Assembly: GCF_000092465.1 (NCBI RefSeq)
Contig: NC_014205.1
Coordinates: 930,001 to 962,000, forward strand
Source of the DNA: Staphylothermus hellenicus DSM 12710
GTDB lineage: Archaea; Thermoproteota; Thermoprotei_A; Sulfolobales; Desulfurococcaceae
Length of the DNA stretch: 32,000 bases
Reading direction: 5' to 3'
This document shows, one piece after another, positions 2 to 17,817 of the stretch (position 1 is the first letter of the stretch; every line of letters starts with the position of its first letter). The position numbers and the translations under genes are program-made. The notes beneath the pieces are model-generated. The model made no database searches. It was not told the DNA's origin and worked only from the letters and a program-made list of their open reading frames with translations.

Positions 2-175
2 GCAGGTTTAACAATAAATCCTGGGGAACAGAAAACATTATACTTTTATCTAAGTACTGTGGAAAATGACTCGAATAGTCCTGTAAGCGATAAATTCTCT
101 AGTGGTGAGACTGTTAGTATTGTTATTCATACTGCTAGCGGTGGACAGTATCCAGCAACAGTAACACTACCATAA
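2..175 (+). CDS. pilin paralogue, C-terminal fragment (5' end outside window)
   Basis: Frame from nt 2 reads AGLTINPGEQKTLYFYLSTVENDSNSPVSDKFSSGETVSIVIHTASGGQYPATVTLP, with stop TAA at 173-175. The last ~24 aa are nearly identical to the C-terminus of the 2144..2602 pilin. Confidence 0.6.
   Translation, partial: AGLTINPGEQKTLYFYLSTVENDSNSPVSDKFSSGETVSIVIHTASGGQYPATVTLP
101..175. repeat. inverted repeat arm; partner is 2144..2218 (pilin 3' coding ends)
   Basis: Hand alignment of 101-175 against the reverse complement of 2144-2218 gives 65/75 identical, including a 31-nt perfect run (agactgttagtattgttattcatactgctag). Confidence 0.8.
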
Positions 176-593: not shown

Positions 594-2093
594 TTAAGCG
601 GTCTTTTGTTTTATGTGTTTTTGTATTTTTATGGTTAAGTATGCTGTGATGGTTGTTAATATGATTGTTGGGAGGGCTGAGAAGTGTATGATGTAGAAGC
701 TCCATAGGCTGTGGTTTCCTATTATGTATAGGGTTAGGTACATGGTCCATATGGAGTAATATGATAGTAGGAGTTTTCTAAGCTTATCTATTCTTATAGT
801 CCATGGCATAGTTATTATTCCTAGAATGAATCCACATAGGTAAACTATTGGTAAACCCATGCATTTCACTGGTTGATGATTTACTGGGTTTATCCATAAG
901 GTGAAAGATTGCCTGCCTAGAAGCCAGTCTATCGGTGAAGATGAAATTGATCCTATGCTTTTTGTCGATAAGTGCCAATGTATAGCATCTACTATGGATG
1001 CTTGGAACCATTTCTGGAACCCATAATAGTTTATGAAAGGAACCGAGAACAGTATTAATAGTAATGGGAACACTACATAGTATCTGAGCAACGTTCCGAA
1101 AGCGTGTCTTAACTTGTAAAGAATATCTCCTCTTTGAAAGAATCCCTCAATGAATTCAGCTGGTGCAATGAATAATCCAGAAAATTTTATAAGACCTGCT
1201 AAGCTGAACAGAACTGTTCTAGCCACACTGGTTTTGAGTGAAGTGTATGGATATTTTATGAATACATAAACACCAACAACTGTAAATACTGCTAGGAAGG
1301 GATCTAGCATCGCTAATACTCCAACAGTGTGGTATGTATTATCAAAATACATGATAATAGGTGTTATGAGAGACAATAAGACAGCATGTTTTCCTCTAAG
1401 GAAAACTCTGAGTATCTCATATGTTATGAGATATGAGAATGAATATATGAGAGCTGTTGAAACAATACTTGGAATCCTCCAAGAAGCCGGGTTATCGCCT
1501 AATAAAACAATAGATAGCATAATAAAATACTTACCTAGAGGAGGATGTTCAAGGTTAAAGTATTCATTAATACCCCCCTTATCAGGCAAAGCCCATCCAG
1601 GAATAACATCTAAAACACTATAATTTAACCTATTAAAATCCCTAACAACATCGTTGATGGAGCAATTCTTCTTTAGAGAAACATATACAGCATTCAAACC
1701 ACCAACATATAAGCTCCTAGTAAAACTACGATTATCCTTCACAACAGTAACCCTAGCAACAAGTGAACCCCTATATTCATCTTCAACAAGACTAAAACAT
1801 AGCTGACCAGAAACACCATTTAAAATAGATGTATTAAAAGGCTTATCCAATACAACAGTATATAATGAACCAGCAGAACTATTCACCCTAATAGAGTCGT
1901 AACCAAAAATCTTATACAAAATATTCCTAGCAGAAGAAACATACCAAACCTCATCAGAGACATAACAACTCTTAAAACCAAAACCACGAAACAACTCATA
2001 AAGATGTAAGGCATTATTAAAACCTATAAACATCACAAACATGAAAATAATCATAGAAACAACTATAGCCCAACAACCACTACTACAAGACAC
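594..2093 (-). CDS. GT-C fold polytopic membrane glycosyltransferase, PMT/GT39-like
   Basis: 499 aa with many hydrophobic segments. It has a DE motif in the first loop (VSDEVWYV) and an EHPPLGKY motif characteristic of protein O-mannosyltransferase-type GT-C enzymes. No WWDYG motif, so it is not AglB. Confidence 0.6.
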   Translation of the reverse strand: MSCSSGCWAIVVSMIIFMFVMFIGFNNALHLYELFRGFGFKSCYVSDEVWYVSSARNILYKIFGYDSIRVNSSAGSLYTVVLDKPFNTSILNGVSGQLCFSLVEDEYRGSLVARVTVVKDNRSFTRSLYVGGLNAVYVSLKKNCSINDVVRDFNRLNYSVLDVIPGWALPDKGGINEYFNLEHPPLGKYFIMLSIVLLGDNPASWRIPSIVSTALIYSFSYLITYEILRVFLRGKHAVLLSLITPIIMYFDNTYHTVGVLAMLDPFLAVFTVVGVYVFIKYPYTSLKTSVARTVLFSLAGLIKFSGLFIAPAEFIEGFFQRGDILYKLRHAFGTLLRYYVVFPLLLILFSVPFINYYGFQKWFQASIVDAIHWHLSTKSIGSISSSPIDWLLGRQSFTLWINPVNHQPVKCMGLPIVYLCGFILGIITMPWTIRIDKLRKLLLSYYSIWTMYLTLYIIGNHSLWSFYIIHFSALPTIILTTITAYLTIKIQKHIKQKTA

Positions 2094-2143
2094 AGCAACA
2101 ACACCAGGAAAGAATTGAATAAAAAAGAATTTATAATTAAACT

Positions 2144-2602
2144 CTAAGGCAACGTTATTGTAGCTGGATACTGCCCACCACTAGCAGTATGAATAACAAT
2201 ACTAACAGTCTGACCACTACTATATGTTCCAGAAGGTATATCAAACTGTATATCAGCACTGCCTCCTGCATTAATAGTAAATGAAAAACCAGTTGCCGGA
2301 GTTGTTATAGGTGCCTGATTATTAATGTTTACCGTCAAACTACTAGGACCTGCTTGACCGATCGGCTTATTATTTATGAATATATCATCTATTGTTGCTG
2401 GTTTTGTCCCTGTATTCTTAGCTGTTATATAAACAGTCCATGCACTACCTGATTTCGTTGCGTATGCGTTTACTATTTCTAGTTTTTCTACTCCTGTAAA
2501 ACTCGATGTTAATCCCGTTATCCACAGTGCTACAGCTATGCTGATGGCTATAGCTACTGCTACAATGATCACGGTTGCAATAACGGGAGATATAGCTTTC
2601 AT
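2144..2602 (-). CDS. archaeal type IV pilin (class III signal peptide), probable major subunit
   Basis: N-terminus MKA/ISPVIATVIIVAVAIAISIAVALWITG is the textbook archaeal pilin/flagellin-like N-terminal domain. The protein is small (152 aa) with a Ser/Thr/Gly-rich body. It has its own 111-bp AT-rich upstream region, with GGGTG 9 nt before the ATG. Confidence 0.85.
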   Translation of the reverse strand: MKAISPVIATVIIVAVAIAISIAVALWITGLTSSFTGVEKLEIVNAYATKSGSAWTVYITAKNTGTKPATIDDIFINNKPIGQAGPSSLTVNINNQAPITTPATGFSFTINAGGSADIQFDIPSGTYSSGQTVSIVIHTASGGQYPATITLP

Positions 2603-2713
2603 ATCGTTTACACCCTATTTATTCTTTTATCTATGCTATTATTATGGTGGTTTGGATTATAAATTGTTTTTTATGGTATATTGTTTTGTATATGAAGCTT
2701 ATATATAAATTAT

Positions 2714-4579
2714 TTATGTTAGCGGCGTTATTGGGCGGTTTTCGTCTCCATATATTCTTACCTGCATTACTCTGTAATAGTAGTTGTAGATGAATACTAG
2801 TTTGGTTGCTGAAGGTACTTTTACTCCATCAATGTTTGCAACTGATATTGTTGCCCATAGGAAATACATGTGGTTGCCATATACTGGTACAAGATTATCT
2901 ACTATGTCATAGTAGAGATCAATTGTTGCTATTCCCGATGTATAGCCGTATGGGAGTTTATAGTATGCATCCATTGTTCCATTTGCAAGATATAGTGTTT
3001 TTTCAGGTGTTAAATCCACATAGTCTAAACCACCACTTATAGTTCGGAGAGAGGGTAGTATTTGGAAAAGTATAGAGTATATTCTTATACCTAGCAACGT
3101 GTTCGGCTGCATATAGGAGTATTTCCTACCATTTATTATTAGGAAGGTGCCTAGCTTAAATGGTATCGTCATGTTTCTGAAACCATATGGATAAGCTGAA
3201 TCAAAAGACATAACATATGTTGCATTTATGCTTTTAACAAACTCCCTATACTCTCCATCCGGTGCTATTATAAAATATTTTATTTCAAACCCTATTGATC
3301 CCCTGCCATTAGATATATAGCCATTATTCCATAATGTAATATTGTAGAATGGCTTGAAATAAGTAATATTAATAGAGTATCCTTCACGTGTCTTACAAGA
3401 TATCCAGTTATAAATTACTTCTAAAACACTCCTCTTAAGAACAGATAATGCCGCCAAACTAGCATTATTCAGAGACTGCTTGAAATTATCGAGGGCTTGA
3501 TAATAATCGTAATCCGCTAAGTTACCAGCTCTAAAAACATATCTGTCCCCTCCAACAATGACATCGAATGTCTTAGAGATCAATAATTCACCGGTCTCAT
3601 CATATACGCTGATAACCCCGTTTCTAAAGATTAGATCAGGGAAAAAGACCTTTGCCTCACCAGAAGAGCCGGCAACCCCCTCATAACTATTTGTTCCATC
3701 AGAAACAACTACTCTCCACCCAGGATGTAAGCCTTCAACATAGATATATTTAGGATCCCTGTTAACAGATAATACAAGTTTATCTATTTCAACATGAGAA
3801 TAGCCTCCAACACCATAGTATAGTCTCTGAGTAGTTGACCCCCTATCATAAGTTATATTAGCCCAAACATTATTGATTTTATCAAACACGTCTAAGCTAA
3901 GTATTCCTGAAGTATAATCATAACCCCCATAATAAACATATGGAGCAGGTACCGATTCCGATAGTTGCCTCCACCATCTATAAGCTCCATTCCGATAATA
4001 TATTACCTCTAGCGTTTGAGAAGGAATATTATTGCCCAGGATATACATGTATCGTATGTAACTAAACAACAGGAAACGGCGGATGCGTATTTGAAACCAG
4101 TCAATATGCTGATCAGCCGTCCCCTTGTAAGCAACATATGCCTGATCATAAAACCTACCGCTTATAGGTATATCAATAATCGCTATGGCGAAATCATTAC
4201 TGCTTTCAAGCACTAAGACTTGTCTATTTGTATCAACATAATGATTATCCGCTATAAATACTAAATTAGATGTATCATCTGTTGAAAAATCCGAATAGTA
4301 TATTGCGCTTCTATCCTCGAGAGATAATGTATAGCTTATCTCATTATATATGGTGTCGAAAGATGAAATAAACTCTTTATAGGCTTTCGTACTAGCGTAT
4401 TTTAGTGCTACAAGATCTAATGTATCAAGTTCTTGATCTATAATGTCCCAGTCATTCTTAACCGTTCCTTTGCTGAGGGATCTGGTATATAGTGTAATCG
4501 ATGTAACATAGAATAAGCTAGCTATTATTAGACCTCCTAAAATAACTATAGCTATAACTATGGGTAGTTGAGCCTTCAC
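2714..4579 (-). CDS. giant pilin-like / N-terminally anchored surface protein (621 aa)
   Basis: GTG start overlaps the upstream stop (GTGA). N-terminus MKAQLPIVIAIVILGGLIIASLFYV fits a K-A/Q-L-P class III-like site plus a hydrophobic helix. The rest is Tyr/Asn/Ile/Thr-rich and poor in charge, with at least 7 N-x-S/T sequons. Confidence 0.6.
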   Translation of the reverse strand: MKAQLPIVIAIVILGGLIIASLFYVTSITLYTRSLSKGTVKNDWDIIDQELDTLDLVALKYASTKAYKEFISSFDTIYNEISYTLSLEDRSAIYYSDFSTDDTSNLVFIADNHYVDTNRQVLVLESSNDFAIAIIDIPISGRFYDQAYVAYKGTADQHIDWFQIRIRRFLLFSYIRYMYILGNNIPSQTLEVIYYRNGAYRWWRQLSESVPAPYVYYGGYDYTSGILSLDVFDKINNVWANITYDRGSTTQRLYYGVGGYSHVEIDKLVLSVNRDPKYIYVEGLHPGWRVVVSDGTNSYEGVAGSSGEAKVFFPDLIFRNGVISVYDETGELLISKTFDVIVGGDRYVFRAGNLADYDYYQALDNFKQSLNNASLAALSVLKRSVLEVIYNWISCKTREGYSINITYFKPFYNITLWNNGYISNGRGSIGFEIKYFIIAPDGEYREFVKSINATYVMSFDSAYPYGFRNMTIPFKLGTFLIINGRKYSYMQPNTLLGIRIYSILFQILPSLRTISGGLDYVDLTPEKTLYLANGTMDAYYKLPYGYTSGIATIDLYYDIVDNLVPVYGNHMYFLWATISVANIDGVKVPSATKLVFIYNYYYRVMQVRIYGDENRPITPLT

Positions 4580-4962
4580 CTAAACCCCACCCTTACATAG
4601 TATTTATAGAATAAACCATTATCATCAAGCCTAGAAATATTGAATTCATAGATTAAAGTAACATTTTGGTTCCGCGGAATAATTGAATAGTAATCAGTAC
4701 TTATAACTTGGCAATTAGTAATGTTGATAATAGTTATATTTACAACAACGTAGCTAGCCTCCAATTCATCTATGATTGTATATGCTAGTTCCCTAGCTGT
4801 CCAAGAAACTTTCGAGTATATGATCGAGTATACATCGTAGTTGCGTGTACGAATATTTATTGTTGTAGAATATGGAAATATGTTGATATAGTAGATAATA
4901 ACCAATAAGATCATAAGTATTGATGCTAGATATGCTGATATAACAATAGCTTGGGACTTCAT
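4576..4962 (-). CDS. small pilin-like protein (128 aa from the ATG; track ORF extends to GTG at 4980)
   Basis: ATG at 4962-4960 overlaps the upstream TGA (ATGA). N-terminus MKSQAIVISAYLASILMILLVIIYYI. Four N-x-S/T sequons. Confidence 0.6.
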   Translation of the reverse strand: MKSQAIVISAYLASILMILLVIIYYINIFPYSTTINIRTRNYDVYSIIYSKVSWTARELAYTIIDELEASYVVVNITIINITNCQVISTDYYSIIPRNQNVTLIYEFNISRLDDNGLFYKYYVRVGFR

Positions 4963-6107
4963 CCCTGAAACCTCCTCCACACAGTTATTATTATATCGTA
5001 ATTAACCATTCCTATTCTCGCAGTATATGTTGTCTCATATGTGACCCAGTTAGAAGGAGTTGGTTCACCAATTAATAGTTCGTGCGGATAAATTATAGCA
5101 TAGTATATTTTGCCATCAGCGTCTCTAAGAAATATAAATACTAAATTGTATATTGGGTATTGAATATCGAATGAATGGGAGCTTGTTTCTACTATAATAT
5201 CATAGAGTGTTGCAAGGCTCCCAGCATAATATTCGTATTCTATATAGTGAGTATCTTTTTCTACATAGTTCTGTAATCTATGTAAACGATAGGTTATTCC
5301 ATTAATTGTGGCTTGATCATAATAAGTAGCAACATATCTGGAAAGGTACTGTTTGTAATAACCATAACCTATATAATAATTAGAGCCTGATTGAAACCAT
5401 GTTAGATTAACTATAAAGTTACCAGTGACAATTGAGTAATTATAGAATTGTCCTTGTGTATAGTAAATTAAAACAGCATTTATAGCTTCTGAGCCGGATA
5501 CTGTATAATAGTTTGGTTGCGGAACTGTGTCGGGTACTGCTATGGTGATCTTGTTATTAACATTATAAGCGTATACTTCATATATGTTTTCCGAGACCCA
5601 GTATCCTATATATCTAGCAACTCCTGTTTCTAGAATGGCGGATACGGCAATTATATTTGTCCTAGAAGTGGTGATTGTGTAGAGAAATGTTCCGTTTGGT
5701 AAAGTGGTAGTTGGGTTATCTAATGTGTAATTACTATATGATAGATCATCGTAGACCACGCATACAGTTAGTTTTCCAGGACTTGTCGTGTATACTTGTA
5801 CATTGTTATCTTGAACATTTACTTTACTAATTCCCGAAGAAACTATTCTAACATTATATCCTATTTCTCTAGACAGGTTTAGTCTGGAAGAAATAGCTTT
5901 CGCGATATCAGTTATTTGGGGCGTGAAGTTTCCTTGGGAAGATATATTGTTTAATACATCTCTTATACCGCTTGACATGTATAGTAGGGTGCTACTCTCT
6001 ATTATGGGCGGGTTTGTTGTTGAAAAATCTGTAACAATAACGTCAAATATGGGTATGAAGGAAACTATTATTAAAGCTGCTAAAACATATTCTATGAGTT
6101 CTTTCAT
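4959..6107 (-). CDS. large pilin-like / N-terminally anchored surface protein (382 aa)
   Basis: ATGA overlap with the upstream gene. N-terminus MKELIEYVLAALIIVSFIPIFDVIV. Very Tyr-rich (e.g. YYIGYGYYKQYLSRYVATYY), with 7 sequons. Confidence 0.6.
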   Translation of the reverse strand: MKELIEYVLAALIIVSFIPIFDVIVTDFSTTNPPIIESSTLLYMSSGIRDVLNNISSQGNFTPQITDIAKAISSRLNLSREIGYNVRIVSSGISKVNVQDNNVQVYTTSPGKLTVCVVYDDLSYSNYTLDNPTTTLPNGTFLYTITTSRTNIIAVSAILETGVARYIGYWVSENIYEVYAYNVNNKITIAVPDTVPQPNYYTVSGSEAINAVLIYYTQGQFYNYSIVTGNFIVNLTWFQSGSNYYIGYGYYKQYLSRYVATYYDQATINGITYRLHRLQNYVEKDTHYIEYEYYAGSLATLYDIIVETSSHSFDIQYPIYNLVFIFLRDADGKIYYAIIYPHELLIGEPTPSNWVTYETTYTARIGMVNYDIIITVWRRFQG

Positions 6108-6613
6108 CTATATATTGCCCCCTTAACAACTATGTTCATAAATATATTATTGTCTAATACCTTAATGTCTAAGTAGGTAATTGTTGAACTACCAAATAAT
6201 ACGGGATCGTTTATCATATTTATAGTTATATAGCCACTTATTGTTTCTACTATTTTCTTCTCCACATGAATAGTATTATCCGGTGTAGTTATGACTACGT
6301 ATATTGAATTATCACTTGGTACATTGAATATTTTATATTGGGATCTTATAGCTGCTCCCGTACCTATTATTATATTGTATTGTTGCCCATACCCGGCTTG
6401 CGGTGGATACATTAGTCTTATTGATAAATTATTATGCCACATTAACGCATATAGTATCTGTGTGGAAATGGAATCAGCAACTCTCTTAAAGTTGTTGACT
6501 AGGTTATCGTTTTTCATTATGGTAACTGTGCTTGATACATGTAGTATTACGAATGCTAACACGATCACTAGTGTTAGGGTACCGATCATATGGATTATAG
6601 CGGGTGAAGCCAC
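6104..6613 (-). CDS. pilin-like / N-terminally anchored protein (169 aa)
   Basis: GTG start shares one nt with the upstream TAG. N-terminus MASPAIIHMIGTLTLVIVLAFVILHVSS (alternative ATG at codon 9). Confidence 0.55.
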   Translation of the reverse strand: MASPAIIHMIGTLTLVIVLAFVILHVSSTVTIMKNDNLVNNFKRVADSISTQILYALMWHNNLSIRLMYPPQAGYGQQYNIIIGTGAAIRSQYKIFNVPSDNSIYVVITTPDNTIHVEKKIVETISGYITINMINDPVLFGSSTITYLDIKVLDNNIFMNIVVKGAIYR

Positions 6614-7374
6614 TAGGTGATCACCACATATAATTGTTCAACGCTTAATAATAAGTTCACAGTATAGCCTTGAGTGAATATATGGGATGGCTCGTATGAT
6701 CGGATGGTTTCGCCCGTAGCACTGTTTATTTCTCTAATAACGAGCCCTTCAATATTGTTTATTTGCTTCTCCAGTGCTTTTCCTCCCGGTACAAACATTA
6801 TTGTTCTCGGGCCGGATACATATCTTGGTCTTAGCTGTAAATAATATATCCTAATATATATCTCCGTATGTGTTCCGTCGGTGACATTGTATATGTGGAT
6901 GTAGAATCTGGATGTGTTAAAGTTTATAGTTGATGCCCCCTCTTGATAGTATTCCCATATTGTTGGTATGAAGGCTATATCGTTTACTGTTAGGTTGTTG
7001 ACGCCATAGATGATCTTGTTGCTTGTGACCACTACATTGGATGATCTAATCTCGATAGCTGATGGCGAATCATCAACAATTATATTTTTCCACCCGGAAC
7101 TTGTGAGGACATCGACTTCATAAACTATATTTTCACGGACATTATATCCTACTCCTACAGTTCCCTTTGGAACAGATATTGAAATACTTGTTCCCTTAAT
7201 TATTTCTGGGACTGACGCGGCTATATTGATCATTGATGATTTCATATATCCATACTCTGATACCTGCATGGATGTTGTTAATGAATTGATCGCTATATAG
7301 AATATCATTATACTTACCATTATGATTACAGAGGATATTATAACTGTAGATATTGCTTCGCTAATCCCCTTCAA
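6613..7374 (-). CDS. pilin-like protein with class III-type signal (253 aa)
   Basis: TTG start is preceded by GGGTG, 10 nt after the platform-gene stop. N-terminus MKG/ISEAISTVIISSVIIMVSIMIFYIAI. Confidence 0.65.
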   Translation of the reverse strand: MKGISEAISTVIISSVIIMVSIMIFYIAINSLTTSMQVSEYGYMKSSMINIAASVPEIIKGTSISISVPKGTVGVGYNVRENIVYEVDVLTSSGWKNIIVDDSPSAIEIRSSNVVVTSNKIIYGVNNLTVNDIAFIPTIWEYYQEGASTINFNTSRFYIHIYNVTDGTHTEIYIRIYYLQLRPRYVSGPRTIMFVPGGKALEKQINNIEGLVIREINSATGETIRSYEPSHIFTQGYTVNLLLSVEQLYVVIT

Positions 7375-7384
7375 TTCTACACCC

Positions 7385-9160
7385 TCACGTAACCGGCTGG
7401 GTTACTCCTCCAAGCATTGTGGTGAGCAGCGGTGATGCTAGGAAGAATATGAGTGTGAAGAATGTTAGTAGGATGGCGTGTTTGAATCCCGCAGCCACCG
7501 ATCCTGATGATACTTTACCGGCTACAAGACCCATTAAATAGGTGTTGATAACTATTGCTGGCAATGTTGTTGAGGCTGCTTGAATATATGATCCGCCAGC
7601 ACCGAATTGTAGTGATCCCATGAATACTGCTAGCATTATTACTGTTGCCGCCGTAAGTATTCCACCCATGTATGGAACTATTAGGAGGGTTCTAAGATTC
7701 TTCTTTTTCTCATCCTCAATAGCATCTACGCTTTCAGCAAACCATGCTAGGTGCTCCATTATCTCAACACTTCCACCGCCAACCTCGATCGTGTCTGTTA
7801 ATACGAATAATAATACTTTTGCTCTCCAAACAATTATTTTCTTGAATAGTTCCTGGATTATCCTAGATAATGGTATTCCAAGGCTTAGTTGGAGAGCTAT
7901 CTTTCTTAAATACTTTGTGAATACGCCATAGTTTCTACGTGAAAGCTCAATAATGCTTCTCTCCGGAGACAATCCTGTCTTACGTATCTCTACTAGGTCT
8001 CTGAGAAACCTTGTTATACCTGTTATTACTTTGTATTCTCTACTAATTATTTCCGTATAGATCGTTGTTGGCAGGGTGGCTATGATTAATATCATTGATA
8101 AAGCTACTGAGGAATAAGTATATGCTGGAAGATTAAATATCTTAGCCGGGTATACTAGGAAATCATATGTTTCACTAACCAGTATATTGCTTCTAAAAGG
8201 ATGGCCAGGCGGTAGAATTGCTGGGAACAACATGCCGAAGAATACGAGGAAGAATGATAGGGGAAGAGTTAATCCTCCAAACATTATATATGGGCGATAA
8301 TCAATCCATGGCTCCTTATACTGGGTTACATCTGTTAAATAAATAATCATGCCCGAAATCATAGGGATCAATATGTAGAGGACAAGGAATAAGCTAGCAG
8401 GCGATAATCCGAATGGAACTGCTGATACAAAAGATACAGTTACAAAATACATAACCGCCAAACTAATCAAGGATAATAGGACTAGCGCCAAATATGCTTC
8501 TAGGAGACCCGCTAATCTATCAGCTATAATCTTCATTCTAACAATTAGTTCAGAAAACAATAACCTAGCTTTCTTATTCAAATAATCAGCTACATCCCCA
8601 CCTGCCCTAACAGTTGTTACATAACCCATTAATAGATCCCTTGCTGTTGGACTAGGTGTTCTCTGAGCTAACATGCTGAAAGCTGTTAACGGATCCCTCC
8701 CTAGAACCCTTACCAATAATATGAATCTCTGGCTAAGCTCTGCTGTCTTAGTAAATACTTTGCTTGCATGAGTAATTCTCTCAAAAGCAACGTAGGGCGA
8801 TAAACCACTCATAACCATCATGCTTAGATAAGCAGTTGTATATGGGAACTCGCCCTCTATCCCGCCGGCTCTACTACTCCCTATGAGAGCTGGTAGATAA
8901 GCTAGAAAAATATATGCGAGAAAAGGTATGGGGACCAGGAAAGGTATGATAATATACATTTTCATTGCTGCGAATAATATTGTTAAAACAACTGTTACAC
9001 CACTAATCAATATAGACATAAACGCCATAAAAGAAGCATATACTTCGGGATACAGATGCATCCCGCTCCTACGTATATCGCTTGATAAGTTCGGATACAT
9101 TCTAAGAATATACTTGCCTAAACCCTCAAAATACCTATAAACCCAATCCCAAAAGGACAT
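7385..9160 (-). CDS. type IV pilus platform membrane protein (TadC/FlaJ/T2SS-F family)
   Basis: 591 aa polytopic protein with a duplicated architecture. It has two cytoplasmic helical segments (..ELSQRFILLVRVLGRDPLTAF.. and ..FLRDLVEIRKTGLSPERSIIEL..) between blocks of TM helices. It is adjacent and divergent to the secretion ATPase. Confidence 0.85.
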   Translation of the reverse strand: MSFWDWVYRYFEGLGKYILRMYPNLSSDIRRSGMHLYPEVYASFMAFMSILISGVTVVLTILFAAMKMYIIIPFLVPIPFLAYIFLAYLPALIGSSRAGGIEGEFPYTTAYLSMMVMSGLSPYVAFERITHASKVFTKTAELSQRFILLVRVLGRDPLTAFSMLAQRTPSPTARDLLMGYVTTVRAGGDVADYLNKKARLLFSELIVRMKIIADRLAGLLEAYLALVLLSLISLAVMYFVTVSFVSAVPFGLSPASLFLVLYILIPMISGMIIYLTDVTQYKEPWIDYRPYIMFGGLTLPLSFFLVFFGMLFPAILPPGHPFRSNILVSETYDFLVYPAKIFNLPAYTYSSVALSMILIIATLPTTIYTEIISREYKVITGITRFLRDLVEIRKTGLSPERSIIELSRRNYGVFTKYLRKIALQLSLGIPLSRIIQELFKKIIVWRAKVLLFVLTDTIEVGGGSVEIMEHLAWFAESVDAIEDEKKKNLRTLLIVPYMGGILTAATVIMLAVFMGSLQFGAGGSYIQAASTTLPAIVINTYLMGLVAGKVSSGSVAAGFKHAILLTFFTLIFFLASPLLTTMLGGVTQPVT

Positions 9161-9388
9161 ATGTAACCCCTAGTATTCATAGTTAGTATTCCTTAATATA
9201 TAGTTTCCTTTAGACTCAAATATATTTATCAATCCATACATATAATGGGTTCTTACATAACTATGTGAACACTGCAATATTAAAAATATTAGAATCTTAA
9301 GAAATAATTATTTAACAGAGAGTATATAATATGTTTACCAGTTATATAGGTATATGCCGAGCTTTGATTTGGAGAGTGTATTTGAACA
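9161..9388. promoter_or_regulatory. divergent promoter region between the platform operon and the ATPase gene
   Basis: 228-bp very AT-rich spacer between divergently oriented start codons. Individual TATA/BRE elements were not assigned. Confidence 0.4.
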
Positions 9389-11158
9389 ATGCAATCTCTT
9401 AGAAAGATTTTATCAAGGTTTTCACGCGGGGAAGAGAAGAGAAGATTAAAAAAGATTCCTGGAGAGGAAGAGGTTTCTGAAGCTGTTAAATCAATTATTG
9501 TCCCAGTAGAGCCTATTCAGGTTGCAAAACGTGATCCTAGCTGGAGAATTATTGAGAGCTACTATGTATATAAACCATTCGTAAAAGTTATAATTACTGA
9601 AACACCTCAGGGACCAATGTATTTTGTTGAAGAATACGGTCTTACACCGAGTGATAAAGAAGTATTGGAGAAGCTCACGAATATTTTGATGGATGAAATA
9701 CGTCCCCCGACAAGGCCCGAAGATATCAAGGACTTGAAAGGATATGTTTTCAAAGAAACAGAGAGAATTGCTGATAAGTATAGGGAGAAACTTGGACTTG
9801 TTGGTGCCCGTAGGATCAAGTTGCTCTACTATATTGAGAGAAACCTATTAGGATACGGACCCATCGATCCATTAATGAGGGATCCAAACATAGAGGATAT
9901 ATCTTGTAATGGAGTAAACATACCAATATATGTTTGGCACAAGAAATACGAGAGCATCCCGACAAACATCACCTTCATAGATGAAGACTACTTGAACGAG
10001 TTCGTTATGAAAATGGCTCATATGGCTGGTAAACATATCAGTATAGCTTTCCCGATCCTAGACGCTATGTTGCCTGAAAAACACCGTTTAGCAGCTACTT
10101 TTGGTAGAGAAGTATCTGTTAAAGGCCCAACATTCACCATACGTAAGTTCCGCGAGAAACCATTTAGTGTTACAGAAATTATTCAATCAGGAGTCATTAA
10201 TAGTCTTGTAGCAGCTTATCTATGGACTCTCATAGAGCACGGCAAAACAGCGATGATCGCTGGCGGTACAGGTGTTGGTAAAACAACCATGTTAAACGTT
10301 GTCAGCATGTTTATCCGTCCCGGAATGAAGATTGTCACCATTGAGGACACACCAGAGATCAACCTACCACATCCAAACTGGGTACAATTAACAAGTAGGG
10401 AAACATACCTAGTAGGAACAAGCTCGCTGGGAACAAATATACGTTTATTCGACCTAGTAAAACTAAGCCTAAGATATAGGCCAGACTATATAATAGTTGG
10501 AGAGGTAAGAGGAGAAGAAGCATTCGTACTATTCCAAGCAATGGCTACAGGCCATGGTGGCTTATCAACCATTCACGCTGAAACACTTGATTACGCTATT
10601 AAGAGGTTGACAAGTCCGCCAATGAATATTCCGCCAACATATATGAAGCTCATGAATACGTTTATTCATCTACAACGTGTGATTGCACGTATTGAGAAGG
10701 GTGTTGTTAAGGTCCGGAGGAGAGCAACTATTGTACAGGAAGTCGAGGATTTCGGTAAGTATAGAACTATAGCTGTATGGGATCCTAGAACAGACCAGTT
10801 CAAAGTCAATCTCGAGGAAAGCATACATTTAAGAGATATTGCTGCAAAACGTGGATTAGAGCTTGAAGACATAATTGATGAAATATATCGTAAAGCAACC
10901 GTACTAAACTGGATGATCTATAAGAACATATTGAATGTATGGGATGTTTCACGGATAATATTCAACTACTACTATGATCCAGCTTCAGTATATAAGAGAG
11001 CTGTTAGAGAGCTTGAAGAAGCGGGTCGTGAAAAAGGCGTTTCCACAATGGTTGCTCCAGAAGAAGTAGCTTCCACAGAGGAATTAGTGGGTGGAACTAA
11101 AGAGATGGGAGAAGCAACTAAGGAATTATTTGAGAGAACAAGAGAGCTTGGAAAATAA
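9389..11158 (+). CDS. type IV pilus/secretion ATPase (FlaI/TadA/VirB11-GspE superfamily)
   Basis: Walker A AGGTGVGKTT, Walker B region PDYIIVGEVRGEEA, His box ATGHGGLSTIHA. 589 aa with an acidic ~49-aa C-terminal tail. Confidence 0.95.
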   Translation: MQSLRKILSRFSRGEEKRRLKKIPGEEEVSEAVKSIIVPVEPIQVAKRDPSWRIIESYYVYKPFVKVIITETPQGPMYFVEEYGLTPSDKEVLEKLTNILMDEIRPPTRPEDIKDLKGYVFKETERIADKYREKLGLVGARRIKLLYYIERNLLGYGPIDPLMRDPNIEDISCNGVNIPIYVWHKKYESIPTNITFIDEDYLNEFVMKMAHMAGKHISIAFPILDAMLPEKHRLAATFGREVSVKGPTFTIRKFREKPFSVTEIIQSGVINSLVAAYLWTLIEHGKTAMIAGGTGVGKTTMLNVVSMFIRPGMKIVTIEDTPEINLPHPNWVQLTSRETYLVGTSSLGTNIRLFDLVKLSLRYRPDYIIVGEVRGEEAFVLFQAMATGHGGLSTIHAETLDYAIKRLTSPPMNIPPTYMKLMNTFIHLQRVIARIEKGVVKVRRRATIVQEVEDFGKYRTIAVWDPRTDQFKVNLEESIHLRDIAAKRGLELEDIIDEIYRKATVLNWMIYKNILNVWDVSRIIFNYYYDPASVYKRAVRELEEAGREKGVSTMVAPEEVASTEELVGGTKEMGEATKELFERTRELGK

Positions 11159-11185: not shown

Positions 11186-12094
11186 TTATAATTCAGAAGC
11201 GTATTCTCTAAGATCGACAGTAAATACGTCTGCTTGTTTTCCTTCAAGAACGCATTCAATTTCCTTTACACCAACTTCTCTATTAAACAATTTCTTAAAG
11301 AACCCCTCTATAATGCCTTTAGTCATATTTCCAGCTTTCCCGACAAAACCATGTTCCGAACCATATTTTGCAAGAGCTGTGCACTCATAATTATTTCTAA
11401 TAATGATCCTATAACTGTTTCCAAGTTCTTCTAAACCTTCTATCTCCATATCTCCTAATCCTAGAGCTTTACATACGTAAATAAACATTTTGAGAGAATC
11501 TCTCAGTCTTTCTTCATAATTCCTCTCAACATCCTTCATTAGCCCAGATATAAATATATCATAGATCGATTCTCCTATTCCTCTACCAAAATCCGTTAAG
11601 AAAGCGGCAGCGTTAAGCATTCCTTTTTTATACACGTAGTAAATAGCTCTTTCAATCATTCTTTTCGTAATAATAACTGATTCATCGTCAAGGAGTAATA
11701 GTCTATTGTATTTTAGGAAAACATAGCTATTAGTAGAAGTGATCACATCTATTTTTACAATATCATTCCCCAATTTATTCAGTATCCCATTTTTCAATTC
11801 TTCACCACAAGATTTATCACAATCATCAACAAGGATCAATATGAAACCATAATCACCATAAGCTATATTGGTCACATTAAGTTTGATTATATTTTTGCCT
11901 TTACCAGTTATTACTTCTGTGATCCTATGCATTATTCCCGGCTTATTTTTAGCTTTTAACAATAATAGTGATAATGGTTTATCCTCAGAGAAATATACAG
12001 TATCCAGGTAGAGGTCAGGAATATCCTCTTCTCTTTTCCTAACTATAGGCCCTTTCTTCTTTAATACTATTTTCCAAAAAGTCAATAATATCAC
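11186..12094 (-). CDS. ACT-like + V4R domain small-molecule-binding regulatory protein
   Basis: N-terminal half resembles an ACT fold (LSLLLLKAKNKPGIMHRITEVITGKGKNIIKLNV). C-terminus NNYECTALAKYGSE..GKAGNMTKGIIEGFFKKLF..VKEIECVLEGKQADVFTV matches the V4R (4-vinyl reductase) pattern. Confidence 0.55.
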   Translation of the reverse strand: MILLTFWKIVLKKKGPIVRKREEDIPDLYLDTVYFSEDKPLSLLLLKAKNKPGIMHRITEVITGKGKNIIKLNVTNIAYGDYGFILILVDDCDKSCGEELKNGILNKLGNDIVKIDVITSTNSYVFLKYNRLLLLDDESVIITKRMIERAIYYVYKKGMLNAAAFLTDFGRGIGESIYDIFISGLMKDVERNYEERLRDSLKMFIYVCKALGLGDMEIEGLEELGNSYRIIIRNNYECTALAKYGSEHGFVGKAGNMTKGIIEGFFKKLFNREVGVKEIECVLEGKQADVFTVDLREYASEL

Positions 12095-12218
12095 CTAGAG
12101 TCATACGCTATAAATTCATACAATATGCATTATATATTATTTTAATGAATAATATATAAAAGTCCTAATCGATGATTCAAAATATTCTTGGAGGAAAATC
12201 TTTATAATATATAGTTCT

Positions 12219-12992
12219 TTATTTTGTTTGGATCACTTCTACTTTATAGGGTAGATTTAGATCTATCATCGAAGTTATTACTTCTAAATCATTCTTAATG
12301 TTTTCCTTTAATTTTTCGATATCGCATTTGCCTAGGAACCCTTTCTTTTTAACATATACTCTAATATATATTATTCCACGGCTAATTGCTAGTTTTACAT
12401 CTACGAGTTTACAACCATATAGTGGAGCAAGATCTTCAACGTCTTGCTTGGTTTTATCGATTAATTCCTTGAGCATCTTGGAGAACTCCATTATTTTTGG
12501 TTCTTTTTTCTCAGCAGCATGAATAGTTGTGGGTACTATTTTCTTCTTAGTAATGAATTCCCTGTATACAGTCTTAGGTGCTTCCCGTGTTTTCTCCTCC
12601 TCATATGGTTGTATCTCGAATAACTTGAAGGTTAAGGGTTTAATTTTAGATGCGAGTATAAGTGTTGCTAAAGGTCTTAAACCAACTATTCTCGTACCCT
12701 TATCGGGATCTGTTTCGGCAGAAGAAACTATTACTCCGTGATCAATATATATAATGTATCTTTTATTGTTAAGCTCCGTAGTTAATAATACTTCTTTATC
12801 TTTACCAAGCTCATTAATCTTAAGCATATCTTCATATCCCAGTGTTATCTTCTTTAAAAACTTGCTCCGCATAAGTAGTTGGGCTTCGAAAGTAATATCA
12901 CTTAAAACATTCATTCTACCTGTATCAATTGGAAGAGACGCTATGATCTCATATACTTCTTTCTCCTCCTCGCCCAAATCTCCGCTCCTCAC
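12219..12992 (-). CDS. hypothetical protein (257 aa): two domains joined by a charged linker
   Basis: Long ORF with normal archaeal composition. I recognised no diagnostic motif. Confidence 0.65.
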   Translation of the reverse strand: MRSGDLGEEEKEVYEIIASLPIDTGRMNVLSDITFEAQLLMRSKFLKKITLGYEDMLKINELGKDKEVLLTTELNNKRYIIYIDHGVIVSSAETDPDKGTRIVGLRPLATLILASKIKPLTFKLFEIQPYEEEKTREAPKTVYREFITKKKIVPTTIHAAEKKEPKIMEFSKMLKELIDKTKQDVEDLAPLYGCKLVDVKLAISRGIIYIRVYVKKKGFLGKCDIEKLKENIKNDLEVITSMIDLNLPYKVEVIQTK

Positions 12993-13130
12993 ATACTAGA
13001 GTTAAAAAATAATGCTCCATATAATTCAAGTCTATTAATAGTTCTTGTTAAATAGATATTTAGAACACTAGATATAAGCTTAGCCCGCCGATATTGTTAA
13101 ATATTTTATGAACAAGCATGTATATGTGTA

Positions 13131-13402
13131 GTCCTGCCCAGGATGCGGTGGTTGGCTGAAGCACCTAGTAGGGCGGGTCTTAGCAACTCTAAGGATGAGG
13201 GGTTTTCCTCCCCCTCCAAGCATCTTCCCGGAGTGGTGAAGAAGATGATCCGCTCTAGGAAGGTGTGGATAGGGAGGGGGAGTGGGGTTACCCTGAATGG
13301 GGGCGAGACCAATGAAATGCCCCCAATGAACCCAGAGGGGGATGAGGCCAATGTGCCCCAAGGCCCATATCCGCGTTTATGAGCGGATATGAGCTGAACC
13401 CC
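13131..13402 (+). ncRNA. G+C-rich structured RNA, identity unresolved (SRP RNA and RNase P RNA considered)
   Basis: ~57% G+C by hand count against ~33% in the flanks, with several long helices readable by eye. G-U pairs work only on the + strand. A TATA-like stretch (13097-13108) lies upstream. Ends are approximate. Confidence 0.55.
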
Positions 13403-13425: not shown

Positions 13426-14772
13426 TTAAACCAATATCTGTGATATAGGTATTAGGGATGAGTATAGCAGTTTTAAATCCGACCTATAAGGTTCCGGAAC
13501 ATTAGTATTAATATTCATTATAATAACTATTTTTTGAGTACCACCAGTATTTAGGCTTACCATAAAGTTTACCAATCTATAAACTTCTTTCCATCCGCCA
13601 AGACTTATCATGAAATCTAGTAGGTCCTCGACCAATATGATCGGGGTAGAACCTTGTGAAAACAATTCTCTAACACCTCTTATAAGGACAGAATTGTCCG
13701 CAAATAATTCATATTGTTTAAAACATATAGACGACATACATTCTGTGCTTGCCTCTATTCTATATAGTGATTCTAATCCATGACCAATACTAACCTTATG
13801 TATCTCGGCGATTCCCAGTTTCCTTAATGCTTCTATATCACTAATTATTTTTGAATAAAGTTCATCCCAAGTCTTGGAGTGAGGCCTGCTAATAAACATT
13901 ATAACTTTCTTGTTACCATTAATATTGCTTAGTATTTCTTTCATAATCTCCATGATCTTTGCAGGCTTAGGTTTTTTGCTTCTAACTAATACCATGATTG
14001 AACCAGATTTTTTCAAAGATACCTTTTTGATGGAGAAATATAGTGGAGCAGATAAATCAGTGAAGTGGATATTGTAGAATAATATAATGTATCCTATCAA
14101 GAGCAGTATGCTAATAACATCAGCCCATAAATTTACCGAGTACATGAGTAAGGAGAATATTAATAAGGTGTCAATCAGTATTAAATGTGATTGCATTATG
14201 TATAGAGTATTTTTACCATTATAATATAATAGGAATACTGCTTTAGAAATATAGAGTATAAAGAACAATAGTATTATGAATAATTTGAATGCTAGGTATG
14301 AATTATCATATAATGAATAAATACTGACTAATACACTTGTAATAGTTACAATGATTATATGCATACTTACTAAAGTATTAAGTTCGTGTCCTAGATGTTT
14401 TTCCTTACTAAATCGAAGAATATTTATAATTCCGGCATAAACATCGAACTCGTTGCCCAGCATCCAAAAAGAAGAGATCTTATATATTAGCAATAAAATT
14501 ATTAGTAGAATTGCTAATACATTTATTATCCCAAACATGATCATATAGGATCCTAAAATAATAGTGTATATCAGTAAACCCGCTGATACTAAATATGTGA
14601 TAATATGTATGTTGAGAAATCTTGTAATTCCTCGAAAAGGCCGTGCATAATGAATATGCTTGTTATAGCTGTATAAACATATAAGTAGTAGGTATAAAGA
14701 TATAAATATTATAAGCCAAGATTTCTCAAGAGACGATATGGTAATGCTAATCATACCAATATAGTCTCCCAA
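13426..14772 (-). CDS. polytopic membrane protein with C-terminal degenerate KaiC/RecA-like (DUF835-type) domain
   Basis: About 8 hydrophobic segments in the first ~240 aa. The C-terminal ~190 aa (..STPIILVEDLLDFMISLGGWKEVYRLVNFMVSLNTGGTQKIVIIMNINT..) lacks a Walker A. TTG start at 14772 abuts the KaiC-like stop; alternative ATG at 14754. Confidence 0.65.
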   Translation of the reverse strand: MGDYIGMISITISSLEKSWLIIFISLYLLLICLYSYNKHIHYARPFRGITRFLNIHIITYLVSAGLLIYTIILGSYMIMFGIINVLAILLIILLLIYKISSFWMLGNEFDVYAGIINILRFSKEKHLGHELNTLVSMHIIIVTITSVLVSIYSLYDNSYLAFKLFIILLFFILYISKAVFLLYYNGKNTLYIMQSHLILIDTLLIFSLLMYSVNLWADVISILLLIGYIILFYNIHFTDLSAPLYFSIKKVSLKKSGSIMVLVRSKKPKPAKIMEIMKEILSNINGNKKVIMFISRPHSKTWDELYSKIISDIEALRKLGIAEIHKVSIGHGLESLYRIEASTECMSSICFKQYELFADNSVLIRGVRELFSQGSTPIILVEDLLDFMISLGGWKEVYRLVNFMVSLNTGGTQKIVIIMNINTNVPEPYRSDLKLLYSSLIPISQILV

Positions 14773-15549
14773 TTAATGTTCCTCCATATAACCAGCGCCA
14801 CGACTAACTTCTTTAGTGAAGGGAACATATGGCTCGATTAGTTCATGTATAAGTTTTAACCCAACAGTATAATCTACTTGGACTTCATATGGTGTTTTAA
14901 CTATATTAAACATTCTCGACTTTACTGGTACAAGTCTCACAGCTAATCTGGGAACTCCAGATGTTATCCATACATAATCCATTAACAATACTATATCTGC
15001 TATAAACTCTTCAGATGAGGAAAGAGCTGTTGTTGAGAACAATGGTAATTCTCCAATTAGTATGGTTGTTAAATCATTATCTATTGTTAAATGATATAGT
15101 CGAGTAATAAGTGTTCTTATTTGTTGCATTTTGAGATATAATGTTAAAGCATTAACACTATCTATAACTAAGTTCTTAGCATTTAGGCTACTTATCAAAT
15201 TCTCTATGTTTTCAAATAAGTCTAGTATTCTTTTAGAATCATAGCCATATATAGGGGGAGCGCCTGCGAAGTATATTGTATTATTTTCAATAAACTTTAC
15301 TAAATCATCGTAAAAGGAGAAGCCTCTAAAATGCTCTATGAACAATTCCTTGTTCTCAATGAGAGACACATATACTCCCTTCTCGTTTTCCTTAGCCCTA
15401 TTAATCAAGTATGTGGTGGCGAAGGTTGTTTTACCAACTCCTGGATGCCCTAAAACATATATCGTCCCCGGCCTTGGAAGCCCCTTATTCGCTAATATTC
15501 TCGTGTCTATATCGAGCATACCTGTTTTTATGAATTTAAGGCGAGGCAA
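14773..15549 (-). CDS. KaiC-like / RecA-superfamily ATPase (ArlH/FlaH-like size class)
   Basis: Walker A GHPGVGKTT, Walker B NLVIDSVNAL. Single-domain, 258 aa, TTG start. Confidence 0.85.
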   Translation of the reverse strand: MPRLKFIKTGMLDIDTRILANKGLPRPGTIYVLGHPGVGKTTFATTYLINRAKENEKGVYVSLIENKELFIEHFRGFSFYDDLVKFIENNTIYFAGAPPIYGYDSKRILDLFENIENLISSLNAKNLVIDSVNALTLYLKMQQIRTLITRLYHLTIDNDLTTILIGELPLFSTTALSSSEEFIADIVLLMDYVWITSGVPRLAVRLVPVKSRMFNIVKTPYEVQVDYTVGLKLIHELIEPYVPFTKEVSRGAGYMEEH

Positions 15550-16366: not shown

Positions 16367-17365
16367 GTGATTGCGGAGATGAGTGAAAATAACAGCTATA
16401 TTATAGTAACGCATACAGATATGGATGGTGTTGGTTCAGCTGCTCTCTATATTTATTTACACGGTAAACAACCAGAGAAAATCTATTTCACCGAGCCATA
16501 CCTTCTATATAAAACATTACAGAAAATAGCTGGGTCGGATTATGAAGTAAGAAAGATTGCATTAATGGATCTTGGTATGAATAAGGAGACCATGGATAAG
16601 ATCATGGAGTATATTAGGATTATTCGAGGCAAGAACATCGATATAGAATGGTTTGATCACCATGTATGGGATGAGGATTGGATCAATAAGTTAAGGGGGC
16701 TGGGTGTTAAAATATATATTGATAGATCAACTTGTGCAGTAGGAGTAGTTGCAAAATATGCTGAAAAATACAGGAACAATATAGATGAAGAGTTTGTATC
16801 CGAACTTGTGAAAGGAGTATGCGCAGGGGATCTGTGGAGATTTGATCATTGGAGGGGGCCCTGGTATCTCCGCCTCGTAAGGAGACATGATGATCCAGAA
16901 TGGCGTCTCAAGGTGTTAGAGAAGATTAGCAGTGGTGTTTTATGGGATGATGAATTCACGGACAAGGTTGTAGAGAGATTTGAGAAAGAACTAATAGGCT
17001 ATAAAATGGTGGATAAAACAATTCTAACTAGGGAAATAAACAATATAAGAATAGCTGTAGTTTTACAGAACAAATATATTGAAAACAGTTTTACAGCATC
17101 CTATACCATGGGGAGAACAAACGCAGATATTGTAGCTGTTATTTCTAAAGATGGAAAAGTCAGTCTTAGAAGTAGAAATATAAACATTAGAAACCTAGCA
17201 CTAGCATTTGGCGGAGGAGGACACCCTAGAGCAGCAGGTTTCAAGATCAAAATACCACTAATTATTAGGTTAAAATCACTCCTAAAAAATAAAGCTCTCC
17301 AAGAATACATAATATCCAAACTCACCGAGAAAATACGTAATATCGGTATAGAACACATAGAATAA
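16367..17365 (+). CDS. DHH/DHHA1 family phosphoesterase (NrnA/RecJ-like)
   Basis: Motifs HTDMDGVGSA (DxD), WFDHHVW (DHH) and GGGHPRAAGF (DHHA1). GTG start; alternative ATG at 16379. Confidence 0.9.
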   Translation: MIAEMSENNSYIIVTHTDMDGVGSAALYIYLHGKQPEKIYFTEPYLLYKTLQKIAGSDYEVRKIALMDLGMNKETMDKIMEYIRIIRGKNIDIEWFDHHVWDEDWINKLRGLGVKIYIDRSTCAVGVVAKYAEKYRNNIDEEFVSELVKGVCAGDLWRFDHWRGPWYLRLVRRHDDPEWRLKVLEKISSGVLWDDEFTDKVVERFEKELIGYKMVDKTILTREINNIRIAVVLQNKYIENSFTASYTMGRTNADIVAVISKDGKVSLRSRNINIRNLALAFGGGGHPRAAGFKIKIPLIIRLKSLLKNKALQEYIISKLTEKIRNIGIEHIE

Positions 17366-17378
17366 TTATAATTAATAT

Positions 17379-17397
17379 CACCTATCAATTCTTTCTA
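17379..17397. repeat. 19-bp perfect inverted copy of the terminal CRISPR repeat end (partner 17794..17812)
   Basis: CACCTATCAATTCTTTCTA is the exact reverse complement of TAGAAAGAATTGATAGGTG at 17794-17812. Confidence 0.85.
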
Positions 17398-17811: not shown

Positions 17812-17817
17812 GTAGGA

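Follow-up and report, generated by a model that had tools for sequence, protein, structure and literature searches.

Described systems and the place of the locus

Archaeal type IV pilus (T4P)-like systems were surveyed by Makarova et al. in 2016 (PMC4858521), and subclade 4A of their scheme holds both the adhesive Aap pilus of Sulfolobus and loci of the Desulfurococcales with a "more complex organization" and "3 to 4 additional components", regarded as a putative minor pilin set. In Desulfurococcus kamchatkensis the locus comprises the ATPase, a divergent TadC, arCOG08836 twice, arCOG03508, arCOG08837, arCOG10426, and arCOG10615 (Table S4 of that paper). The locus type has also been modelled as subsystem 4A in a MacSyFinder preprint (Sivabalasarma & Albers 2026, 10.64898/2026.04.22.720090). 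A literature search found no experimental study of the locus or of pili in Staphylothermus or Desulfurococcus. The window analyzed here is a stretch of 32,000 nucleotides (nt) from Staphylothermus hellenicus DSM 12710 (NC_014205.1, positions 930,001 to 962,000, forward strand), a non-motile hyperthermophile of the Desulfurococcaceae. It contains the "complex" Desulfurococcaceae variant of the subclade-4A T4P-like system, one already catalogued computationally. The locus encodes a genuine, conserved T4P-like system that is distinct from every experimentally characterized archaeal pilus, and it is not a new kind of machine.

An earlier note on this DNA had described a FlaI-type ATPase diverging from a seven-gene operon for a platform protein, five helix-bearing proteins, a pilin, and a GT-C glycosyltransferase. 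All nine open reading frames (ORFs) were found at the coordinates reported in that note when the sequence was read again. Our Pfam and NCBIfam scans covered window ORFs of at least 100 amino acids (aa), and the profile searches that the note had proposed for the nine proteins assigned the ATPase, the platform, the pilin, and the GT-C protein; no Pfam or NCBIfam family matched the five accessory ORFs. T2SSE and T2SSF matches bore out a plus-strand PilB/FlaI-type ATPase diverging from a minus-strand run, coordinates included. From the ATPase outward, that run consists of the TadC/FlaJ platform, p253, p169, p382, p134, p621, a 111-bp gap, and the pilin pil152. The junctions from the platform to p621, read from the sequence, are +10, -1, -4, -22, and -4 nt, and the platform gene heads a closely coupled unit of six genes. 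The operon claim held for the run from platform to p621 and failed for the GT-C gene, which is not conserved and is preceded by a run of T. Likewise, no archaellum accessory genes (ArlF, ArlG, ArlH, or ArlX) were found in the operon, as had been stated.

The note had proposed a distinct, uncharacterized T4P machine with the caveat that the family might be catalogued only computationally, and it was the caveat that proved apt. The S. hellenicus ATPase (gi 297526959) is listed among the clade-4 ATPases of Makarova et al., and their tree groups it with Staphylothermus marinus, Thermogladius, Thermosphaera, Desulfurococcus, and Thermofilum, adjoining the branch of the Sulfolobales (Aap) and Thaumarchaeota (PMC4858521, Table S2 and tree). 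Our ranking of ATPase homologues gave the same relatives, and the 4A placement rests on this ranking together with the published tree. The subclade-4A families arCOG08836, arCOG08837, arCOG10426, and arCOG10615, along with the Staphylothermus-only arCOG12459, were counted for S. hellenicus in the same survey (Table S1), which gave the organism two clade-4 ATPases and none of the archaellum clade (clade 3; Table S3). The arCOGs of individual window proteins are given here by correspondence to the published loci rather than by an arCOG search. The part of the proposal that survives is the distance from characterized systems, since every equivalog model scored far below its cut-off. The ATPase scored 371 bits with FlaI (cut-off 550) and 242 with BasE (cut-off 1000); the platform scored 41 with ArlJ (cut-off 550), 54 with BasF (cut-off 1300), and 78 with UpsF (cut-off 400); and pil152 scored 33 with UpsA (cut-off 130).

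A scan of a genome collection with the ATPase yielded 39 loci (cited below by L numbers), and S. marinus, Thermosphaera aggregans, Thermofilum, and a Methanomethylicia metagenome-assembled genome (MAG) were added by exact-protein match. This comparison of gene neighborhoods, another check suggested in the note, found the order of ATPase diverging from platform, p253, p169, p382, p134, and p621, with or without a pilin thereafter, in S. marinus, T. aggregans, and nine Desulfurococcales MAG loci; the layout is therefore not due to chance. The accessory proteins are only 25-45% identical across the syntenic loci and are thus genuine genes under selection. In T. aggregans, the order is the same, the sizes are 260, 250, 871, 373, 130, and 422 aa, and blastp links each S. 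hellenicus protein to its counterpart. Distant relatives (L009, L014, L015, L020, Thermofilum, Methanomethylicia, Thaumarchaeota, and Heimdall-/Hodarchaeota) have the ATPase-platform pair only, usually co-oriented. ATPases approximately 40% identical, each followed by a platform gene, were also seen in L021-L035 (Heimdall-, Hod-, and Hermodarchaeota MAGs), in agreement with the report that a few Asgard archaea have simple T4P-like systems (10.64898/2026.04.22.720090).

The 4A loci of Desulfurococcus and Thermosphaera share the divergent ATPase/TadC layout and the order of accessory families with S. hellenicus, but the S. hellenicus locus differs from them in several respects. It has one copy of p253 rather than two; its p169 is a 169-aa minimal version of a DUF2341 surface protein of 819-878 aa; its arCOG10615 member is longer (621 aa versus 316-453 aa); and the locus additionally carries a GT-C gene and one or two genes for AapB-like pilins. 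The published description of the 4A loci is computational only and mentions neither the two accessory families that lack a cleavage motif nor the moving lectin-like domain, both reported below. The Aap pilus of S. acidocaldarius (aapA-aapX-aapE-aapF-aapB; 8Q30) is similar in that its ATPase belongs to subclade 4A and the system is of a non-archaellar, adhesion type, and its subunit is the closest solved relative of pil152, although the similarity is weak (8q30, E 4.4e-5). In contrast, Aap includes an AapX-type Fe-S (iron-sulfur) protein. At the S. hellenicus locus, no Fe-S or radical-SAM family matched any window ORF scanned, and no AapX-type gene (arCOG07320) was present. The ATPase and platform genes are also co-oriented in Aap and divergent in S. 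hellenicus, which in addition has the five extra surface proteins.

Components of the locus

The ATPase (589 aa; 9389..11158, plus strand) belongs to the PilB/FlaI/GspE superfamily (T2SSE, E 4.7e-34) and to arCOG01817, Makarova clade 4, subclade 4A group. Its Walker A (GGTGVGKT), Walker B/Glu (IIVGEVRGEE), and His box motifs are readable, and the protein is a catalytically intact secretion ATPase of the hexameric type. The best relatives in the PDB were GspE of Archaeoglobus fulgidus (2oap, 332 bits) and then FlaI of S. acidocaldarius (253 bits), with CpaF also among them. The sequence shares 100% identity with an S. hellenicus protein, which excludes the Sulfolobales origin that might be suspected from the low GC content of the window. 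Orthologues are 70-85% identical within the Desulfurococcaceae and 55% identical in Thermofilum. The S. hellenicus gene is intein-free. One or more inteins were observed in the orthologues of L043 (1773-4982), L010 (10001-14524), L011 (10001-15988), L012 (10001-14410), and L013 (7857-11024), the intein-bearing ORFs being 1055-1995 aa long. The match to the S. hellenicus ATPase breaks after approximately residue 299 in S. marinus, L010, L012, and L013 and after approximately residue 356 in L011, and the S. marinus ORF has Intein_splicing and LAGLIDADG matches.

The TadC/FlaJ-like platform that the note had named (591 aa; 7385..9160, minus strand) was corroborated by two T2SSF stretches (E 1.1e-17) and approximately 8 hydrophobic segments, which place this polytopic protein in the TadC/FlaJ/PilC family. 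It is 55-74% identical across syntenic loci, and its pairing with the ATPase is kept in all 39 related loci covering it. Between the two genes lies an AT-rich divergent intergenic region (9161..9388) in which we see a candidate promoter for each of the two transcription units. When 9 orthologous spacers were aligned, they showed a conserved AATATATA element approximately 35-43 nt from the platform start and a Shine-Dalgarno-like GGAGAGTG motif ahead of the ATPase start.

Each of the five proteins encoded downstream of the platform (p253, p169, p382, p134, and p621, of 253, 169, 382, 134, and 621 aa) has exactly one hydrophobic segment, located N-terminally. The note had credited all five with a basic N-terminus and a helix. 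The helix is present in five of five, and the basic motif only in p253, p134, and p621, the three in which orthologue alignments show that a class III cleavage motif is conserved. P169 (MASPAIIHMIG) lacks basic residues and p382 (MKELIEY) has Glu rather than Gly or Ala at position -1, and both features are conserved across orthologues. What appears to be new in this analysis is that these two accessory families lack the motif and carry invariant N-terminal signatures of their own.

P253 (6613..7374, minus strand) is pilin-like, has the conserved class III signal MKG/ISEAISTVII (the slash marks the cleavage site) in the orthologue alignment, and corresponds to arCOG08836. The motifs [KR][GA]/[VIL]SE and EYGY.KS are conserved in 12 orthologues, and the N-terminal 40 residues match the pil152 family (hhalign 89.5%, E 2e-6). 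The length of the orthologues varies from 250 to 635 aa, and the long forms contain an inserted DUF2341 and lectin-like domain. In L001, L006, and L010 an insertion of approximately 400 aa separates the conserved N- and C-terminal parts, and in L006 (6068-7924) and L010 (6090-7997) DUF2341 and a legume-lectin-like domain were identified within it; p253 is likewise longer in L013 (463 aa) and L037 (487 aa), where it had no Pfam match. A profile hidden Markov model (HMM) of the p253 family found nothing among PDB sequences. P169 (6104..6613, minus strand) is a single-pass surface protein without the class III motif, has a conserved MxxPxIxHxIG N-terminus, and probably corresponds to arCOG12459. 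It is 25% identical over 128 aa to the N-terminus of an 871-aa DUF2341 protein at the same operon position in T. aggregans, and it represents the N-terminal module of the 819-871 aa DUF2341 surface proteins (arCOG03508) of Thermosphaera, Desulfurococcus, and L012. DUF2341 was observed in the p169-like proteins of L041 (T. aggregans; 3961-6576) and L012 (3750-6209) and was found in no S. hellenicus protein.

P382 (4959..6107, minus strand) is a single-pass, beta-rich surface protein of the arCOG08837 family, with the start MKE[IL][IV]EY and neither Gly nor Ala at -1 in the orthologue alignment. K2, E6, Y7, and P19 are invariant or nearly so. Only 37 representative clusters of this family were found among 1.84 billion proteins, nearly all of 360-445 aa and matching over their full length; there was no Pfam match, and a profile HMM built from 27 sequences found nothing among PDB sequences. 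P134 (4576..4980, minus strand) is a small pilin-like protein with the class III-like signal MKS/QAIVISAY and corresponds to arCOG10426. In 8 orthologues, M[KR][SA]/Q and the hydrophobic helix after it are conserved; identity is 33-43% in syntenic loci. The true start of p134 is probably Met7 at 4962, which would make its junction with p382 -4 rather than -22 nt, with an ATGA overlap at the p382 stop. P621 (2714..4579, minus strand), a large surface protein with the class III signal MKA/QLPIVIAIVI, corresponds to arCOG10615 and is a candidate adhesin or tip subunit. Eight orthologues of 316-453 aa share its [KR][GAS]/[QH][LI]P motif, and only 5 homologues were found among 5.8 billion clustered proteins. 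Given so few p382 clusters and p621 homologues, the accessory set is narrow in distribution and fast-evolving.

The check with AlphaFold (AF2) and Foldseek that the note had suggested was run for p621 and p382 and yielded no fold assignment, the hits against the PDB being only noise for both models. The mean predicted local distance difference test (pLDDT) score was 63.1 for p382, with a beta core at 92-340 (pLDDT 65-93), and 53.7 for p621, with confident modules at 275-350 and 359-460; both models came from shallow alignments. Comparison of the six families with hhalign gave no relationship beyond the N-terminal signal and helix shared by p253 and pil152; thus, the accessory proteins are not detectable paralogues of each other.

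The 152-aa pilin with a class III signal (pil152; 2144..2602, minus strand) was upheld as an archaeal type IV pilin. It starts MKA/ISPVIATVIIV and matches TIGR02537 at 20.2 bits (cut-off 20) and Pilin_N at 22.1 bits. Its best PDB match was the Aap subunit named above (8q30, 26.7 bits, a weak match), followed by the AT4P pilin of Pyrobaculum calidifontis (8fk7) and Iho670, and we regard it as AapB-like and a candidate major filament subunit. Residues 1-35 are 69-97% identical among orthologues (83-97% in eight of nine) and the rest 36-62%. Pilins of this type occur in 1-3 copies in MAG loci, up to 3 of them in tandem, and are inverted in L003; the loci of S. marinus and T. aggregans have none. 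N-glycosylation sequons are absent from pil152, which is 24% Ser+Thr. The 111-bp gap that the note had placed before the pilin gene was confirmed (2603..2713); TATA-like boxes and the Shine-Dalgarno motif GGGTG occur in it, and it is a candidate separate pilin promoter. With its conserved core helix, variable globular part, multiple copies, and own spacer, pil152 behaves like a major subunit.

At the left edge of the window we found a feature absent from the note, the 3' end of a second pil152-like pilin gene (2..175, plus strand), cut by the edge and convergent on the GT-C gene. Its translated C-terminus, FSSGETVSIVIHTASGGQYPATVTLP followed by the stop, is identical to the C-terminal residues of pil152 at 23 of 26 positions. 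Positions 100-174 and 2145-2219 form an inverted repeat of 75 nt that is 88% complementary, and the GT-C gene is thus bracketed by two inverted, convergent pilin paralogues. Assemblies of the genome from short reads break at both copies of the pilin repeat. Inversion or recombination between the pilin genes is conceivable.

The GT-C (PMT/GT39-like) glycosyltransferase gene adjoining the locus (594..2093, minus strand) was correctly assigned in the note: PMT (PF02366) matched at 32.6 bits (gathering score 22.7), and the protein has at least 6 hydrophobic segments. Its membership in the operon or system was not upheld. Neither an ORF-by-ORF comparison of 10 loci nor a tblastn screen of the loci revealed a homologue, and the 50 nt between the pilin stop and the GT-C start contain a T-run (approximately 2121-2128). 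For these reasons, the gene is a neighbor and not a core component. The S. marinus operon is followed by a K+ channel gene, with neither pilin nor GT-C there, and the single distant metagenome relative of the GT-C protein (32% identity) has no pilin nearby.

Proposed function and competing explanations

We think it reasonably probable, on the gene content described above, that the product of the locus is an adhesive type IV pilus related to Aap, with minor pilins forming a priming or tip complex. A prepilin peptidase of the PibD/FlaK type, encoded elsewhere, would trim p253, p134, p621, and pil152. The ATPase and platform would extract the trimmed proteins from the membrane and assemble a non-rotating adhesive filament from the AapB-like pilin, namely pil152 and its paralogue. 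The products of the five genes downstream of the platform are single-pass proteins, each with an N-terminal hydrophobic helix and a beta-rich extracellular body, and would act like bacterial minor pilins and PilY1 as a priming complex that comes to lie at the tip or base of the filament, with p169 and p382, which lack a cleavage site, staying membrane-anchored or capping the complex. A large adhesin or lectin module would sit on a lineage-dependent subunit, either DUF2341 in p253- and p169-like proteins elsewhere or the extended p621 in S. hellenicus. The likely role would be adhesion to surfaces or between cells in an organism that forms aggregates and lacks an archaellum.

Two features of the families suggest this division of labor. 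A conserved core helix, a variable globular part, and up to 3 tandem copies are as expected of a major subunit, and pil152 has them. The length variation of the accessory proteins and the swapping of DUF2341 and lectin-like domains are as expected of tip or adhesin proteins and not of a subunit in a helical lattice, and a lectin-like module that moves between subunits suits the former better. The minor-pilin complexes of bacterial type IVa pili and type II secretion systems (FimU-PilVWX-PilY1; GspHIJK) offer a functional analogy only, the role being inferred. As in those systems, four to five differently sized pilin-like proteins are encoded together, one is large and adhesin-like, and some lack canonical major-pilin features; however, no sequence or fold relation is detectable and the S. 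hellenicus set comes after the platform gene. Epd of Methanococcus maripaludis (clade 1) also has several minor pilin-like proteins, all of them needed for piliation, and a major pilin encoded elsewhere (10.64898/2026.04.22.720090), but it differs in its CpaF-like ATPase (arCOG01819), split platform, peptidase in the locus, and unrelated accessory families. It is possible, although we would not count on it, that the five proteins form an archaeal priming or tip complex that arose independently of the bacterial minor-pilin/PilY1 type, with two members whose conserved N-termini (MKEIIEY, HxIG) are apparently non-cleavable and a swappable lectin-like (DUF2341) adhesin module. Such a complex might include n257, a neighboring arCOG08835-like protein described below; arCOG08835 is not listed as a T4P component in published censuses.

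Several observations weigh against the adhesive pilus with a minor-pilin complex. No Peptidase_A24 match occurred among the window ORFs scanned, so that the absence of a prepilin peptidase from the 32-kb window, also reported in the note, holds; in Desulfurococcus, the peptidase gene is likewise unlinked to the locus (Makarova et al. 2016, PMC4858521, Table S4). Two of the five accessory proteins have no recognizable cleavage site, and "minor pilin" may be the wrong term for them. The structural models are of low confidence (mean pLDDT 54 and 63), and neither a fold nor a pilin-like domain could be assigned to any accessory protein. The loci of S. marinus, T. aggregans, and Desulfurococcus have no small pilin, and there the major subunit would have to act in trans or be p253.

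The missing small pilin is one argument for the explanation that p253 (arCOG08836) is the major filament subunit and that the 152-aa pilins are alternative or accessory subunits added in some lineages. P253 is encoded by the first gene after the platform in every complex locus, is sometimes duplicated, has the cleanest class III motif, and resembles pil152 at its N-terminus; furthermore, arCOG08836 is annotated as "Major pilin, PilA family" (PMC4858521, Table S1). However, a length of 250-635 aa with a 400-aa DUF2341/lectin-like insertion in some members is hard to fit into a conserved helical lattice, the gene is translationally coupled inside the operon without a promoter of its own, and p253 matches no solved pilin while pil152 matches AapB. 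In addition, stand-alone arCOG03871 pilins encoded elsewhere in Desulfurococcus could serve in trans (PMC4858521, Table S4). We consider p253 unlikely to be the major subunit, although less so than the explanations that follow. The small pilin is dispensable in several genomes, and most of the coding capacity of the operon is devoted to large class III or N-anchored surface proteins; the product could instead be a short pseudopilus or bindosome-like scaffold that positions p621, p382, and the DUF2341 proteins in the wide space beneath the Staphylothermus S-layer canopy. The Bas system of Sulfolobus, a T4P-like machine that anchors surface proteins, is a precedent. The BasE and BasF scores far below cut-off, the lack of solute-binding protein domains in the Pfam scan, the position of the ATPase in the Aap subclade, and the presence of at least one AapB-like pilin in most Staphylothermus-like loci make such a scaffold quite improbable.

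A pilin gene beside the gene of its own glycosyltransferase is known from Pseudomonas (pilA-tfpW), and the S. hellenicus GT-C protein, a member of the PMT family encoded between two inverted pil152-type genes, could by analogy be a functional member of the system that is dedicated to glycosylating the pilin. The sequon-free, Ser/Thr-rich composition of pil152 would leave O-glycosylation as the sole option if the pilin is glycosylated at all. This role is nevertheless improbable, if somewhat less so than the scaffold, as the GT-C homologue is missing from every syntenic locus, including three with pilin clusters and that of S. marinus, the sole metagenome relative has no pilin neighbor, and the T-run separating the gene from the pilin is terminator-like. 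A degenerate or divergent archaellum for rotary motility would explain why FlaI is the best-scoring NCBIfam model for the ATPase, why JGI labels orthologues "flagellar protein FlaI", and why a KaiC-like ATPase gene lies 3.6 kb from the T4P ATPase. We rejected the archaellum as having almost no chance of being correct, given the model scores below cut-off (FlaI 371/550, ArlJ 41/550, and 25/215 for the KaiC-like protein on ArlH) and the missing accessory genes: ArlF, ArlG, ArlX, and archaellin were not found, and S. hellenicus has no clade-3 ATPase (PMC4858521, Table S3).

Chromosomal surroundings and significance

Beyond the ATPase, n302 (11186..12094, minus strand) is a conserved neighbor and a small-molecule-binding protein with ACT and V4R domains (above cut-off with 34.3 bits for ACT_AHAS_ss and 32.7 bits for V4R). 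It weakly matched the sensor region of MsvR and is a possible regulator. A gene of this type lies next to the ATPase in Staphylothermus-like loci and at the other end of the operon in T. aggregans (L041). The next gene encodes n257 (12219..12992, minus strand), an uncharacterized, arCOG08835-like cytoplasmic protein. In most complex 4A loci, its gene and that of the ATPase converge (L001, L003-L006, L010, L012, L013, and T. aggregans), and arCOG08835 adjoins the ATPase in three Desulfurococcus genomes and has 7 members, the same count as arCOG08837 and arCOG10426 (PMC4858521 and its tables). No Pfam, NCBIfam, or PDB relative of n257 was found, including with a family profile HMM against PDB sequences, and it may be an accessory factor that has gone unrecognized. 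The T. aggregans (L041) counterparts of the n257/n302 neighborhood are at 265-1125 and 11681-12424.

Farther along (13426-15549, minus strand), the gene for the KaiC-domain ATPase (258 aa) abuts that for a 448-aa protein with 7 transmembrane (TM) segments and a soluble C-terminal domain. By its ArlH score, the KaiC-like protein is not ArlH. A KaiC-like gene followed by a polytopic membrane-protein gene also lies beside the T4P locus in L001, L006, L010, and L013 and is absent there in T. aggregans; the membrane protein is recognizably homologous in L001 and L006 only. The KaiC/7-TM pair could form a signalling module with a link to the pilus locus. A GC-rich segment of approximately 300 nt (13085-13400) between n257 and the 7-TM gene, within a region of 33-36% GC, lacks a credible ORF, a tRNA, and, even at E<=1, any Rfam match, and it is absent from the same position in L001 and L006. 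It folds better than shuffled sequences (z -4.5 on the plus strand and -3.4 on the minus strand) and may be an unannotated structured RNA.

The gene order from 16367 to 28634 is common to T. aggregans L041 12492-21680 and comprises a DHH phosphoesterase, a 179-aa protein, a geranylgeranyl reductase, an AMP/thymidine phosphorylase, an amidohydrolase, a phosphoglucomutase, and an AdoMet decarboxylase. This order extends beyond the pilus locus in both genera and thus places the locus in an old, stable chromosomal context and not on a mobile island.

No "complex" subclade-4A system has been studied experimentally, and archaeal pilus initiation and adhesin display are poorly understood. The value of this analysis is a refined catalogue entry: the true class III substrates, the likely major pilin, a lectin-like domain that moves between subunits, and a GT-C protein that is not core. 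Staphylothermus and its relatives lack an archaellum and possess just two ATPases of the T4P type, which makes this locus the foremost candidate for the machinery of their adhesion or aggregation.

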